Below are positions 2,561-59,947 of a stretch of 64,000 nucleotides of DNA, in pieces. Both the position numbers and the translations under genes were made by a program. Numbering within the stretch: the first letter of the stretch is position 1; every line of letters starts with the position of its first letter. Where the stretch lies: the NCBI RefSeq assembly GCF_004010195.1, contig NC_057719.1:8754066-8818065 (forward strand), given 5' to 3'. Under the pieces are notes generated by a model. The model was not told where the DNA came from and searched no databases. It saw only the letters and a program-made list of their open reading frames with translations. Source of the stretch: Chiloscyllium plagiosum. Its lineage: Eukaryota.

Positions 2561-2734
2561 GCTTTGCTTGTGTCCGGGTGCCCTTGCAGAGGGAGCAAAT
2601 TGGATCCATAAATACTCTCAATGTTTTTAGAGAGAGGTCGGTGAAATAACTTCACGGAGGCTGGTATGCCATCACTAAGTCACTCTTTATTTATAGGTGT
2701 AGAGTATATGACACTGACCCAGAGTGAACAAAAC

Positions 2735-2986
2735 CCAGTGGTTAGCGATGCTGTCTCACAGCACCAGGGACCCAGGTTCGATTCCAGCCTTGGGCGACTG
2801 TCTGTGTGGAGTTTGCACATTCTCCCCGTGTCTGCGTGGGTTTCCTCCTGGTGCTCTGGTTTCCTCCCACAGTCCAAGGTTGTGCAGGTCAGGTGAATTG
2901 GCCATGCTAAATTGCCCATAGTGGTCAGGGAGGTGTAGGTTAGGTGCATTGGTCAGGGGTAAATGTGGAGTAATAGGGTAGGGGAA
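2735..2986 (+). mobile_element. HE1-type V-SINE (tRNA-derived), 3' part missing
   Basis: B-box GGTTCGATTCC followed by V-domain CTGTGTGGAGTTTGCACATTCTCCCCGTG...CCATGCTAAATTGCCC. Confidence 0.85.
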
Positions 2987-2990
2987 TTTC

Positions 2991-3292
2991 AGATTAGATT
3001 AGATTACTTACAGCGTGGAAACAGGTCCTTCAGCCCAACAAGTCCACACCGACCCGCCACCCATCCAGACCCATTCCCCTACACCTAATGCTATGGGCAA
3101 TTTAGCATGGCCAATTCACCTGATCTGCACATCTTTGGACTGTGGGAGGAAACTGGAGCACCCGGAGGAAACCCACGCAGACACAGGGAGAATGTGCAAA
3201 CTCCACACAGTCAGTCGCCTGAGGCGGGAATTGAACTTGGGTCTCTGGCGCTGTGAGGCAGCAGTGCTAACCACTGTGCCACTGTGCCACCC
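2991..3292 (-). mobile_element. HE1-type V-SINE, full length
   Basis: Reverse-complement head GGTGGCACAGTGG, V-domain and (TCTAA)n tail. Confidence 0.9.
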
Positions 3293-3652
3293 CCTCAGTG
3301 GCTCAAAGATTAGCACTGCTGCTTCACAGCGCCAGGGACCCAGGTTCGATTCCAGCTTTGGCCGAATGTCTCTGCGGGCTTTGCACATTCTCCCCGTGTC
3401 TGTGTGGGTTTCGTCCAGGTGCTCCAGTTTCCTCCACAGTCCAAAGAAATGCAGAATGGGTGAATTGGCTACAGTAAATTGCACAGTGTTCAGGGATGTG
3501 GTTATCTGAATTAGTCAGGGGTAGATGTGGAGTAGGGGAATGGGATTCTATGAGATGGAATGGATCTGGATAGGATACTCTTCGGAGGGTCGGTGTGGAG
3601 TTGTTGGGCCGAAGGGCATGTTTCCACATTGTCAGGATTCTATGATTCTATG
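3293..3652 (+). mobile_element. HE1-type V-SINE
   Basis: Head, V-domain, CR1-derived tail ending (GATTCTAT)n. Confidence 0.88.
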
Positions 3653-3669
3653 AACCCCTGACATTCCTG

Positions 3670-4261
3670 GACTTAATATTGAGTTCAACATCTTCAAATT
3701 GTGAACCCACTCCCATTCCTTCCCTTTGTTTTAGTTTTACTTGTTATATTGCCCTCTCTCCCTCCCCCTACCCTAGTGGAACTGTTCTGTTCTTTACAAT
3801 TTGGCAGTCAGACACATCATTGTTCTGCAATCCTCACATTCTGATCACTTAATCTGAACTATCAAAGTCATTTCTCCCCCAGCACTCCACATGCCCCCCC
3901 CCCCCTTCCCCATCATTACATAAATGCTGCCCCCTCCACACTTCTCACCAACTCTGAAGAGTCACATAGACTTGAAACGTTAGCCTGCTGTCTCTCCGCG
4001 GATGCAGCCTGACCCACTGTGATCCCGTAGGAAAAAGTGAGGACTGCAGATGCTGGACATCAGAGTCGAGACTGTAATGCTGGAAAAGCGCAGCCGGTTT
4101 GGCCGCATCCGAGGAGCAGGAGAATTGATGTTTCAGGCATACGCCCTTGATCAGGAATGCCTGAAATGTCGATTCTCCTGCTCCTTGGATGCTGCCTGAC
4201 CTGCTGTGTGTTTCCAGCAACACACTCTCGACTGCTATGATCTCCAGCACAGTTTTGTTTT
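3670..4261 (+). mobile_element. PLE 3' terminal segment (family 2) with hammerhead motif, containing a nested palindromic family-1 mini-element (~4028-4233)
   Basis: CTGAAGA..GAAACGTT at 3954-3981; CATTCCTG duplicated at 3662-3669 and 4262-4269; internal fold-back centred near 4150. Confidence 0.7.
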
Positions 4262-4711
4262 CATTCCTGTTGACCTCTGCAACCGTGGCAGCCCCAATCA
4301 GGGAACTCTTATTCTATGAGGTCCACCTGGCTGACCTTGTTACAATCATGACAGTGGGCACCGCAGGGAGTGGGACACTTTATCTCCTCTTGCAATTCCA
4401 TTTTGATTTCGATCCCATTCCCTCTCCCTCACCTTTCATGCTCTGAGTGGGCTTTTCATGTAATCAATTGGAAAACTGAGTAACTGGTTAATGGATGGAA
4501 AAAAAACAATTCACCATGAGTGATTTGCTGATGGGAAAAATAAACGTTCAACTGTGTATAAGAGCATTTCTAGATATTAATGTAAAGCCTGAATGATGTG
4601 GAGCTCTTGTGGTACAGTGGTAGTGTCCCGACCTCTGAACCAGAACTTGGTTCCAGTTCCAGAGTTGTGTCGTAATATTTCTAGGTGTCTTTAAACCTAA
4701 AGCTTCTTTTT

Positions 4712-17751: not shown

Positions 17752-17976
17752 TAGGAGAAAACGAGGACTGCAGATGTTGGAGATCAGAGTCAGAAAGTTT
17801 GGTGCTGGAAAAGCACAGCAGGTCAGGCAGCGTCTGAGGAGCAGGAGGATCGACATTTCAGGCATAAACCCTTCATCAAGATTCCTGACAAAGAGTTCAT
17901 ACTCAAAACATCGACTCTCCTGCTACTCAGATGCTGCCAGACCGGCTGTGCTTTTCCAGCACCACATTTTTCAACT
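17752..17976. mobile_element. Family-1 palindromic mini-element inside CR1 debris (17580-18360)
   Basis: GGTGCTGGAAAAGCACAGC...|...GCTGTGCTTTTCCAGCACC arms with decayed hammerhead cores at the centre. Confidence 0.8.
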
Positions 17977-18389
17977 AAAAATAAAGGTTGCCCATTCTTG
18001 CTGGAGACCAGGACAAATATGCCTTTCATTAAAGGTTTGTGAGCATTTGGAACCCAGCGAGCTGCGGAGGGGCAGTCATTGAATAGGTTTAAGGCAGAGG
18101 CGGATAAATTCTTCACTGGAAAGGGAATCAAAAGTTATCAGGGAGTGGTTGGAACATTGGTTTGAGGCCACAGTCAGGGCAGGAAAGTGGACGTGAGGAA
18201 CGTTGGATCAGCCGTGATCCTATTGAATGGTGGAGCAGGCCTGAGGGGCCGAATGGCCTACTCCCGTTCCTATTTCTTATGATTTTATCAGATCGGCCAT
18301 CATCTTATTGAAGAGTGGAACAGCCTTGAGGAGCTGGGTGGCCTACCTCTGTTCCTAACCCAGAGGTTCCTAAATATTATGTTCTTCAA

Positions 18390-19280
18390 AACGATTACAG
18401 ATAGAGAATTATTGATACCTGTGATTGACTGCAGAGAGGATAATTGAAACCTGTGATTGATTAGAGAAGGATAATCGATACCTGTGATTGAATAGTGAGA
18501 GGATAATCGATGCCTGAGATTGAATAGTGAGAGGATAATCAATACCTGTGATTGATTAGTGAGAGGATAATCGATACCTGAGATTGATTAGTGAGAGGAT
18601 AATCAATACCTGTGATTGATTAGTGAGAGGATAATCGATACCTGAGATTGATTAGTGAGAGGATAATCGATACCCGTGATTGATTAGTGAGAGGATAATC
18701 GATACCTGAGATTGAATAGTGAGAGGATAATCGATACCTGTGATTGATTAGTGAGAGGATAATCGATGCCTGAGATTGAATAGTGAGAGGATAATCGATG
18801 CCTGAGATTGAATAGTGAGAGGATAATCGATACCTGTGATTGATTAGTGAGAGGATAATCGATACCTGAGATTGAATAGTGAGAGGAGAATCGATACCTG
18901 TGATTGATTAGTGAGAGGAGAATCAATACCTGTGATTGATTAGAGAGAGGATAATCAATACCTGTGATTGAATAGTGAGGAGAATCGATACCTGTGATTG
19001 ATTAGAGAGAGGAGAATCGATACCTGTGATTGATTAGAGAGAGGATAATTGATACCTGTGATTGACTGCAGAGAGGATAATCGACACCTAGATTGATTAT
19101 AGAGAGGATAATCAATACCTGTGATTGATTAGTGAGATGATAATCGATACCTGTGATTGATTCGAGAGAGGATAATCGAAACTTGTGATTGATTAGAGAG
19201 AGGATAATTGATACCTGTGATTGACTACAGGGAGGATAATTGATACCTATGACTAATTAATGATTGAATAATCAATACTC
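18390..19280. repeat. 32-bp minisatellite, ~27 copies
   Basis: Unit GATTGA(T/A)TAGTGAGAGGATAATCGATACCTG(T/A), head to tail with no spacers. Confidence 0.97.
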
Positions 19281-19399
19281 TGAAGTGAATAAAAGATAAT
19301 GGATAGCTGAGAGCGATTACCTGAAACAATGACTTTTTGTGGTTCTACCAATACCTAGGAGTAATTGTAAGTGGTGTAGTATTTTTTAAAGTCTTTCTC

Positions 19400-20132: not shown

Positions 20133-20334
20133 TAGTAGCTTATAAGTAAAGGAGGAACTCTGACTTTGATAATATATACAGTTGCTCGATCATAGATGAA
20201 ATAACTGCATAGAGACCTGGTATCCCATCACCAAGTCACATGTGTACAGTACATTGGCTGGTGACCAGCCAGCTCAGAGTCAGTCCCTGAATTCAAGGGA
20301 CTCTCTCAATTCCCTGTTTATTTAATTTTTTTAA

Positions 20335-20608
20335 AGATTCTCTACAGTGTGGAAACAGACCCTTAGGCCCAACAAGTCCACATTTCCCTCTGACTAATGC
20401 ACCTAACACAATGGGCAATCTAGCATGGCCAATTCACCTGACCTGCACATCTTTGGACTGTGGGAGGAAACTGGAGCACCTGGAGGAAACCCACGCAGAC
20501 ACGGGGAGAGCGTGCAAACTCCACACAGACAGTCGCCCGAGGCTGGAATCGAACTTGGGACCCTAGTGCTGTGAGGCAGCAGTGCTGACCACTGAGCCAC
20601 CGTGCCGC
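20335..20608 (-). mobile_element. HE1-type V-SINE, full head
   Basis: Minus strand GCGGCACGGTGGCTCAGTGG..., V-domain, tail. Confidence 0.9.
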
Positions 20609-20625
20609 TATAATTCCCTGTTTAT

Positions 20626-20975
20626 TTATTTATTTTTTCTTGCACTCCACTCCCTGCGGCGCCCACCTCTCCCTGAACAACTCCAGGGTGTTGGTGAAAT
20701 CTCCTGTTCTTTTTTTTATATAGGAAAACACCCATCTTCTGTTTTTTTTTTATTAACCCCCACACTACCCACCTAAGTGCGGTAGAATTCCCTGTTTATT
20801 TTTTTCTTTTTTTTTTTTTTGTTTTTTTTTTAATTCAATTTCCACCACCAGGAAGATAGGAAACACCCGGGTGGCCAGTGACAAACACTGCCCTTCACAT
20901 CAAAGGACAGTGCTGTGTGATCAAAACAGTGAAGGGGAGGGGAGGGACTAAATCAAAATAGAGTTGGAGGGGAAG
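20626..20975 (-). mobile_element. Poly(A)-tailed L1/Tx1-like 3' fragments
   Basis: Minus 20640-20695 encodes TNTLELFRERWAPQGVEC; minus 20950-20975 encodes PSNSILI-stop followed by a 3' UTR and poly(A). Confidence 0.6.
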
Positions 20976-22309
20976 AATTCCCTGTTTATATCTGTAACCC
21001 AGGGTGCCCTGATTGGCCCGGGTTAACAACCCCAATCAAGGATCTCATAGTCAATGAGATCCACCTGGTTCCAATCACTACAGATGGAGAATTTGGGAAT
21101 TTCTGAAAATTGGCACATTTTGTCAAGTTGTTTGTCTTGCACTCACCAGGACACAGACAAGAACACCAATGTAAAATGGAACAACACTGTAAACTGTGTG
21201 AGAACAGATTACTGATTGGACATGGACCCTGACCAGTAAAGGCTGCGGCATGGAATCTGCACCAGTTTGATGACGAGGGTTAACCTACCGAGTTTAAATT
21301 TAAACAAAGTTCAATAGTTAACCGTCAGTCATCATCTAAGTGGTGAATTCTGCATGGCAAAACCTATACCAATCAGAGTCCACTTGCCTAACAATTAGCA
21401 TTCTCTGATTAACAGTATAAATATTGTATTCCCGTTACTTTGATATTTCTTGCAAATTGTTCTGGTGAATGCAAGGTGAAAAGTTTTGCATTTTATCAAT
21501 GAAACCCTGTTAATATTTTTATACACATTGCTCACAGATAGAATTCAATGATAAAATATGCTTTCAGCAGGGCAGAAATTGTAATGAAGTCTAGCTTTAA
21601 ATCTCAACCTCTTTCAGAATTGATGTAGTCAGATGTCTTCCGATATTGATGAATTATTGACCTAATATTAGACTTCATCATGGCAGGATGTCCTCCTAGG
21701 GTAATGACAGTACCTCCCTGCATAGCATTAATGATTTACACAGCACAGATGCAGGTAGATAAATCAGGACCTAAACAAAGATCTCCAGCTCTCTTTCTCT
21801 CTCTCTCTCTCTTTCTCTTGGCACCTGGACAATTGCCAAGCATTCCTGAAGCCAAAGCATATCTTCTCATTTCTGTGGTGCATAATTCAGGAACTGCATG
21901 TCTTCTGGGCATCAGAGCTGTATATTAAAGATGGCAGTGATAATATCAAGTGTGTCTGTTGTGCCTGAACTATAAGCATAGATTTAGGCAATACATAACT
22001 TGATGTCTAAAAGCTCCAATTAATACATCAAGTCAAGTGACAAGTTGCTCAATTTCATTAAAAGGGCATTTAAACCACAAAAGACCTATCAGCTTCAATC
22101 TTTCTTGTGTGTTTGACTCCTCTTCATTTCTCAGTCCCTCCTCCCATTTATTTTTGATTTGCTGCTCCTTTCCAAAAGTGTGACCAAAGAGATTTACTAG
22201 TTGGTTGGATTGGGAAATGATGTTACCAGGTCCTGGCTTCACATTCCAAGCCTCGATGTGGGCATTTTCCCTCCTTTCTGGTTGTGCGTGCAGGCCCTGT
22301 TTCAGGCCT

Positions 22310-23109: not shown

Positions 23110-23304
23110 AAAAAATCACACAACACCAGGTTATAGTCCAACAGGTTTATTTGGAAGCACAAGCTTTCAGAGTATAAGCTAGCTCCCTGACGAAGGAGCA
23201 GCGCTCCGAAAGCTAGTGCTTCCAAATAAACCTGTTGGTCTATAACCTGGTGTTGTGTGATTTTTAATTTTGTCCATCCCAGTGCAACATCGGCTCCTCT
23301 ACAT
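23110..23304. mobile_element. Family-3 palindromic mini-element with intact hammerhead motif
   Basis: CTGACGA(23187-23193)-A-GGAGC-AGC-GCTCC-GAAA(23208-23211)-GCTA; TSD CAAGA(T/C)AAAGCA at 23098-23109 and 23305-23316. Confidence 0.82.
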
Positions 23305-26293: not shown

Positions 26294-26667
26294 AACTGCT
26301 GCTGGACTTAAAGGGTTGAATCTTACTTTCTGTTGTTCGCAAACAAACATTTTCAAATTGTTCCTGCATAGTTTGATGCATTTTGAGTTATTTTGTGTAA
26401 TGTGTTCATTTGCTGTAAGTACATTGGCAGCTTCTCATGAATGATGTTCACTGACCGATCGCCATGGTGAACAAAAAAGAAAACTTAAAAATATATGAAG
26501 CCAGGTCTCACTCTGGGACCCTACCTTTCCAGAGGGATCATTACACTCATGTGGCTCTGTGTCAACTATTCCCCTGATACACTTTGGGATGCCTCACTCA
26601 TTCATTCATCTTGAATTAAGTTTTTTTGTGTTGGGAGTTGAACGAAGAAGTCTTCAAAACATTACCT

Positions 26668-59280: not shown

Positions 59281-59479
59281 AGAGTTGTAAACAAAGTTTG
59301 GGAGAAGATTTGTAGCTTAGGTGCTCGTTGTTGTGGTTCTGTTCGCCGAGCTGGGAATTTGTCTTGCAAACGTTTCGTCCCCTGTCTAGGTGACATCCTC
59401 AGTGCTTGGGAGCCTCCTGTGAAGCGCTTCTGTGATGTTTCCTCCGGCATTTATAGTGGCCTGTCCCTGCCGCTTCCGG

Positions 59480-59947
59480 AGCATTTCCAAACTGACAGCC
59501 AGAGAACTGCGACCACTAGGACTCATAACAGCACACAAACCAACAGCCACCCTCAGACAACAACTCACCAGAACAAAGGACCCGATACCCAACATGAGCA
59601 AAACCAATGTAGTGTACAAAATCCCATGCAAGGACTGCACAAAACACTACATAGGACAAACAGGAAGACAGCTAACGATCCGTATCCATGAACACCAACT
59701 AGCCACGAAACAGCACGACCAGCTATCCTTAGTAGCCACACACGCAGATGACAAGCAACATGAATTCGACTGGGACAACACTAACATTATAGGGCAAGCC
59801 AAACAGAGAACAGCCAGGGAATTCCTAGAGGCATGGCACTCATCTACAGACTCTATCAACAAACACATCGACCTGGACCCAATATACCGGCCACTACAGC
59901 GGACAGCTGGAACTGACAACTGGAAGCGGCAGAGACAGGCCATATAA
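59480..59947 (+). CDS. GIY-YIG endonuclease domain of PLE ORF (N-terminally truncated, frame open)
   Basis: NVVYKIPCKDCTKHYIGQTGRQLTIRIHEHQ...HEFDWDNTNIIG..REFLEAWHS..SINKH; the track's start at 59432 lies in the inverted repeat. Confidence 0.9.
   Translation, partial: SISKLTARELRPLGLITAHKPTATLRQQLTRTKDPIPNMSKTNVVYKIPCKDCTKHYIGQTGRQLTIRIHEHQLATKQHDQLSLVATHADDKQHEFDWDNTNIIGQAKQRTAREFLEAWHSSTDSINKHIDLDPIYRPLQRTAGTDNWKRQRQAI

Follow-up and report, generated by a model that had tools for sequence, protein, structure and literature searches.

Analysis of a 64,000-nt stretch of DNA, referred to throughout as the window, revealed three A-tailed inserts stacked in one orientation within a short LTR-like repeat, where they are bounded and separated by four exact copies of a single 14-mer (Table 1). 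We favour, with fair rather than strong confidence, an origin in which a site-preferring LINE of the L1/Tx1 type would have re-cut the target copy bearing the full TATAAA three times, on both strands, bypassing better TTTT/AA sites and carrying a SINE in trans.

Table 1. The stack and its host repeat, from left to right in window coordinates
Feature	Position	Strand	Remarks
Host repeat, 3′ part	20197–20307	minus	ends ...CA on minus strand
Target-site copy 1	20308–20321		exact 14-mer
Insert 1	20322–20611	minus	290 bp; full-length tRNA-type SINE; short A-rich tail 20322–20332
Target-site copy 2	20612–20625		exact 14-mer
Insert 2, piece a	20626–20696	minus	A-rich tail 20626–20640; LINE ORF C-terminal fragment 20641–20696, stopping before the stop codon
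Separator b1	20697–20709		target-like, 10/14 to the 14-mer at 20698
Insert 2, piece b	20710–20733	minus	A8 tail; 16 nt resembling the 3′ UTR of insert 3 (13/14 aligned)
Separator b2	20734–20741		9/14 to the 14-mer; 10/12 to b1, counting into the T-run
Insert 2, piece c	20742–20785	minus	A10 tail and 34 nt of no assigned family
Target-site copy 3	20786–20799		exact 14-mer
Insert 3	20800–20975	minus	176 bp; last 8 LINE ORF codons, ~115-nt 3′ UTR, longest tail
Target-site copy 4	20976–20989		alone keeps TATAAA (20990–20985, minus strand) across the nick
Host repeat, 5′ part	20990–21082	minus	starts TG on minus strand; CCAAT at 21016–21012

The stack and its host repeat

An exact-match scan of the whole window placed the 14-mer at the four positions given by the first-pass annotation (20308, 20612, 20786 and 20976), with 0 mismatches among the copies. 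No further copy at two or fewer mismatches is present in the window, where the next best positions agree at 11/14. From the base composition, the chance of three extra exact 14-mers inside 700 nt is about 1e-17, and a chance origin was rejected. Simple tandem duplication was also ruled out, since the sequences between the copies bear no relation to one another and end in separate tails.

The bases to the left of copies 1–4 are c, t, g and g, respectively; to the right, copies 1–3 run into a T-rich tract and copy 4 into host sequence. From the unequal left-hand bases and the T-rich tracts that follow copies 1–3, we conclude that the 14-mers are shared target-site duplications (TSDs) of at most 14 bp. 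The same tracts bear out the earlier claim of three minus-strand A-tailed inserts between the copies. Position, orientation and TSD, as directly observed at this one locus, are the same in 3/3 inserts. Across the junction, copies 1–3 read AATAAA in place of TATAAA. The nick used, TTTAT/A, is one base off the generic L1 site TTTT/AA, and the 9-mer spanning it occurs once in the window. Perfect TTTT/AA sites created by earlier inserts, at 20329 and 20828, both lack an insert, and none comparable is visible at the 90 TTTT/AA sites of the window. Inspection of 27 other A-runs in the window for a TSD-flanked insert gave no convincing case. One of these runs, A7 at 26621–26627, has a flank matched over 17 nt by minus-strand sequence 3.1 kb upstream and possibly marks a TSD-flanked insert.

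Once the inserts are removed, the host repeat is 218 bp in length; with the stack, it spans 20197–21082. The CCAAT motif and the TATA box reported on its minus strand were both located in the host sequence. We take the repeat to be an LTR and, judging from its sequence, it is likely a solo LTR; no internal gag-pol region flanked by host-type sequence was seen in the window. A second, interrupted LTR-like copy lies at 2642–4353, with which both halves of the host align collinearly. An 11-bp segment carrying AATAAA in this related copy (2642–2735) is deleted from the host. Outside the ends of the host, no clean TSD is seen, the right-hand GATG overlapping the left TG end; the outer TSD of the second copy is 5 bp, 4/5 matching.

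The abundance of the host family was observed directly in sequencing reads. The depth on the 5′ part of the second copy is ~3,300 in run X21 (1,934 million letters) and similar in run X22, which implies that the family has thousands of copies. Reads at the end of the second copy share the host's five terminal letters, beyond which the agreement of the flanks is ~0.4. The common end letters followed by scattered flanks, together with the high depth, lead us to conclude that the host family is abundant, dispersed and sharp-ended. The inner loose ends of the reads on the second copy resemble host 20996–21027; their letters stop ~8 nt before the target site and are thus uninformative on its filling. 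The first-pass description of the host as an LTR is supported to the extent that it is an abundant LTR-like repeat with TG...CA ends and a sharp boundary. In metagenome scans, the LTR motif was found at seven loci, all of which (7/7) match just a 20-mer and are accordingly regarded as chance matches.

At 4262–4290, the second copy has the corresponding target site in degenerate form, lacking TATAAA; it holds no A-tailed insert, but an unrelated repeat cluster lies within ~10 bp of it. Its degeneracy indicates that the target site varies within the host family. The second copy itself is interrupted by a Penelope-like end and several copies of the SINE; at 2736–3632, three or four of the latter alternate in orientation and are either nested or placed back to back.

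The window as a whole is ~43% GC, rich in short repeats and devoid of long intact frames; we take its repeats to be shark-type SINE, CR1-like and Penelope-like remnants. At 18372–19360 lies a minisatellite of ~30 units of 32 bp, rich in purines on its plus strand. Three short, long-armed palindromes are present, at 17794–17970 and 23111–23265 (arms of 88 nt at 78% and 62 nt at 95%, respectively) and, recognised by eye, at 4028–4235. There are also open frames of 174 aa (59423–59947) and 349 aa (828–1877, across an N gap), which resemble Penelope-type RT/GIY-YIG ends.

The three inserts

Insert 3 has the composition proposed for it in the first-pass annotation, the end of an ORF followed by a 3′ UTR. 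Its tail is ~32 nt, with a pure run of 14. The UTR contains one hairpin of 13–16 bp, and its overall folding is no better than that of shuffled sequences (z −1.16). Five Rfam matches were obtained in 20600–21100, all far below the gathering score. An A-rich 3′ tail, 5′ truncation and a TSD are all present in insert 3, these being features common to all L1-clade elements.

The same LINE end, comprising the ORF C-terminus, also occurs as an older copy at 2557–2641 and 4354–4430, split by the second LTR-like copy, so that the nesting seen in the stack is there reversed. At 4374–4399, read differences (depth ~4–15 reads per run) shift this older copy toward both piece a of insert 2 and insert 3. 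As both pieces match the older LINE end and the read differences move it toward both, we assign them to one family. In the parent LINE, piece a ends ~4 nt before insert 3 starts (window 20641 and 20975, respectively); this near-adjacency, a single case, possibly reflects a preferred RNA break point or chance.

The LINE C-terminal peptide (39 aa, about half of it from outside the ORF) was compared with 14 candidate proteins, none of which scored. A single protein hit, to a bacterial PKD-repeat protein, was rejected as spurious, and a protein atlas search with the peptide returned unrelated hits alone, all under 0.9. The LINE-end motif was found at 0 loci in metagenome scans. Of the ORF, the window contains only the last codons. 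The protein searches named no relative; we take the LINE to be Tx1-like, and it is probably a Tx1-clade case.

Insert 2, of 160 bp (20626–20785), resolves into three short A-tailed pieces, as in the first-pass annotation, and the peptide reported in this insert is encoded by piece a, as its translation confirms. The 34 nt of piece c have no second match in the window and no clear match to insert 3. Among the 27 other A-runs of the window, the score between the two separators, 7/9, is reached by 8/702 ordered pairs; the b1–target score is reached by 1/27 and the b2–target score by 9/27. Because the separators are both alike and target-like, insert 2 may have been copied from a read-through across a stack of greater age elsewhere. 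Should the separators be TSDs, their decay exceeds that of the pristine outer copies, and they would thus predate the insertion with which they arrived. We regard the likeness of the separators to each other and to the target as suggestive of this older-stack origin. Our estimate is that there is about an even chance that insert 2 derives from another member of the host family, as a 5′-truncated copy of RNA read through an older stack there, and a slightly smaller one that it was assembled by serial template switches. Template switching just after a tail is described in the accessible portion of PMC2912911. The serial switching put forward earlier for insert 2 stands as about as likely as its rival, although the target-like separators fit a copied older stack.

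The commonest SINE of the window is present at full length in insert 1, with 77–87% identity to its best eight window matches. Insert 1 diverges by 6.6% from the majority of the other 13 copies in the window, the third lowest value of the 14. The tail consists of one AATCT unit, then TT, then A7, and this A7 is the longest A-run among 19 matches to the SINE 3′ motif in the window. Of the other 18 matches, a few of which may be chance or LINE ends, 14 have AATCT- or ATTCT-type units and two have A5–6. With A5–6 in 2/18 of the others, the tail of insert 1 is only modestly unusual. The A-rich tail said to replace (TCTAA)n is present as the A7 run, but the replacement is incomplete, one AATCT unit being kept, and it is shared in part by those two matches. 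We take the SINE to be HE1-like. HER1 is CR1-like. In the accessible part of PMC3747384, a table lists HE1 with HER1 as its partner in sharks and rays. If an A-tail were added to the SINE RNA behind a short U-run, this RNA would become a substrate of a poly(A)-priming enzyme.

Origin of the stack

In the mechanism that we favour, a poly(A)-primed LINE of the L1/Tx1 type would have a single preferred site, in the TATA-like box of the abundant LTR-like host family. The plus strand would be nicked after 20989 and reverse transcription primed on an A-tailed RNA; the opposite strand would be nicked 14 bp away, and every event would duplicate the 14-mer. The copy on the 5′ side of the insert alone would keep the sequence across the nick, so it would be cut again, and the stack would grow from left to right, the SINE being oldest and insert 3 newest. 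The SINE would be carried in trans through its A-tail. The analysis supports the trans-mobilisation of the SINE suggested by the first-pass annotation.

The enzyme, its clade, the order of events and the origin of insert 2 are what we infer. Since TATAAA survives across the nick in copy 4 alone, re-cutting predicts the order insert 1, insert 2, insert 3. The T-rich tracts lengthen rightward, from 11 to 16 to 36 nt, the longest adjoining the intact site, and this trend may be taken as weak support for the same order. Moreover, the unused perfect TTTT/AA sites argue against a purely generic L1-type enzyme. Site-preferring re-cutting, as originally proposed, thus agrees with the shared TSDs, the recurrence of both nicks three times over, the single orientation and the A-tail priming, albeit at a single locus. 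Against this reading, the nick is one base off the L1 consensus, and four pristine 14-mers lie beside a SINE diverged by 6.6%, for which the probability is ~0.03–0.28 at divergences of 8–3%; this tension would be eased if part of the 6.6% were subfamily difference. Also against it, the second copy (2642–4353) is without an insert at the matching site, though this site is degenerate as well.

Sense insertion leaves CCAAT and TATAAA intact upstream of the newest insert and gives AATAAA at every 3′ junction. We consider it rather unlikely that the LTR acts both as landing pad and as promoter, with read-through RNA of the stack re-inserted into further LTR copies and insert 2 as a second-generation product. 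If this were true, each stack would be a ready transcription unit and arrays would beget arrays, recording the order in which RNAs were captured.

The main rival to re-cutting, to which we give a low probability, is a single event at one nick pair, in which the reverse transcriptase, on finishing an RNA, repeatedly jumps to the 14-nt target overhang and copies it, so that a 3′ end identical to the first primer becomes available for priming on a further A-tailed RNA. Such an event needs neither re-cutting nor a sequence-specific enzyme, the identical length and sequence of the four copies would follow together, and insert 2 is itself composite. A jump onto the target 3′ end is, moreover, a published model for L1 and R2 in the accessible portion of PMC2912911. 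The three tails are nevertheless unequal in length and purity, and similar tandems were taken for sequential insertions by Kojima in the available text of PMC4494074.

No more probable is a generic, abundant L1-like element with a loose T-rich preference, for which the TATA-like site would be merely a favourable hot spot. The nick does lie near the L1 consensus TTTT/AA, as given in the available part of PMC1950540. However, the better generic sites inside the stack were left unused. A generic L1 enzyme is expected to give TSDs of variable length, whereas the TSD is 14 bp in all three inserts.

Finally, it is very improbable that the assembly fused T-run junction reads of separate LTR copies via the shared 14-mer: the window does contain 520 N, and the best of 20 public runs has 0.64 of the stretch's sampled words (a share that is itself not evidence either way), but the host halves are collinear with the related copy, and such a join would still need a 14-mer beside each insert, so that an artefact would not remove the targeting.

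Relation to known systems

The stack is real and clean, and aimed, stacked insertion has already been described in frogs and crocodilians. Given the accessible text of Kojima 2015 (PMC4494074), the behaviour is less new than the first-pass annotation implied. In that text, the crocodilian Tx1 families Tx1-8_Crp and Tx1-4_AMi prefer LTR retrotransposons, tandem copies of SINEU-3 sandwich one TSD and are read as sequential insertions, SINEs are carried in trans by target-preferring Tx1 families, and a LINE is counted as target-specific when >20% of its copies are flanked by one target repeat. In the literature searched, which lay outside Repbase Reports and most subscription papers, we found neither a shark case nor a TATA-box target.

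If targeting holds genome-wide, the range of targets chosen by Tx1-type LINEs would be extended to the TATA box of an LTR and into a shark lineage, and the LINE would supply a new APE endonuclease whose stagger is defined at 14 bp, of use in studying how such enzymes read DNA. Stacks of this kind would serve as ordered records of mobile RNAs. It would take a demonstration that the LTR drives transcription and that whole stacks are re-mobilised to make the system surprising.

Three known systems invite comparison, each as far as the available portions of the papers describe it. The LINE of the stack resembles Tx1-8_Crp and Tx1-4_AMi in its putative preference for LTR retrotransposons, a comparison made by LTR preference and not by exact site; the host lineage is shark-like here and crocodilian there (PMC4494074). 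Tx1L of Xenopus laevis, inserted in Tx1D, is an APE-type LINE at one site of another transposon, as proposed here, and its endonuclease nicks its target almost exclusively in vitro (PMC1950540). The Tx1L target, however, is a piggyBac-type element and nicking was assayed in vitro, whereas the LINE of the stack is known from sequence alone. By analogy, the stack would work like Tx1-Mar with SINEU-3: in Mariner-N4_AMi, these form TSD-sandwiching tandems, with a SINE in trans, a fixed orientation per site and a TSD of 16 bp, much as in the stack (PMC4494074). The two differ in that SINEU-3/Tx1-Mar combines a DNA transposon target with a dedicated SINE family, the stack an LTR-like target with mixed cargo. 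The SINE of the stack, if it is HE1-like, normally has another partner, HER1, in the accessible part of PMC3747384.
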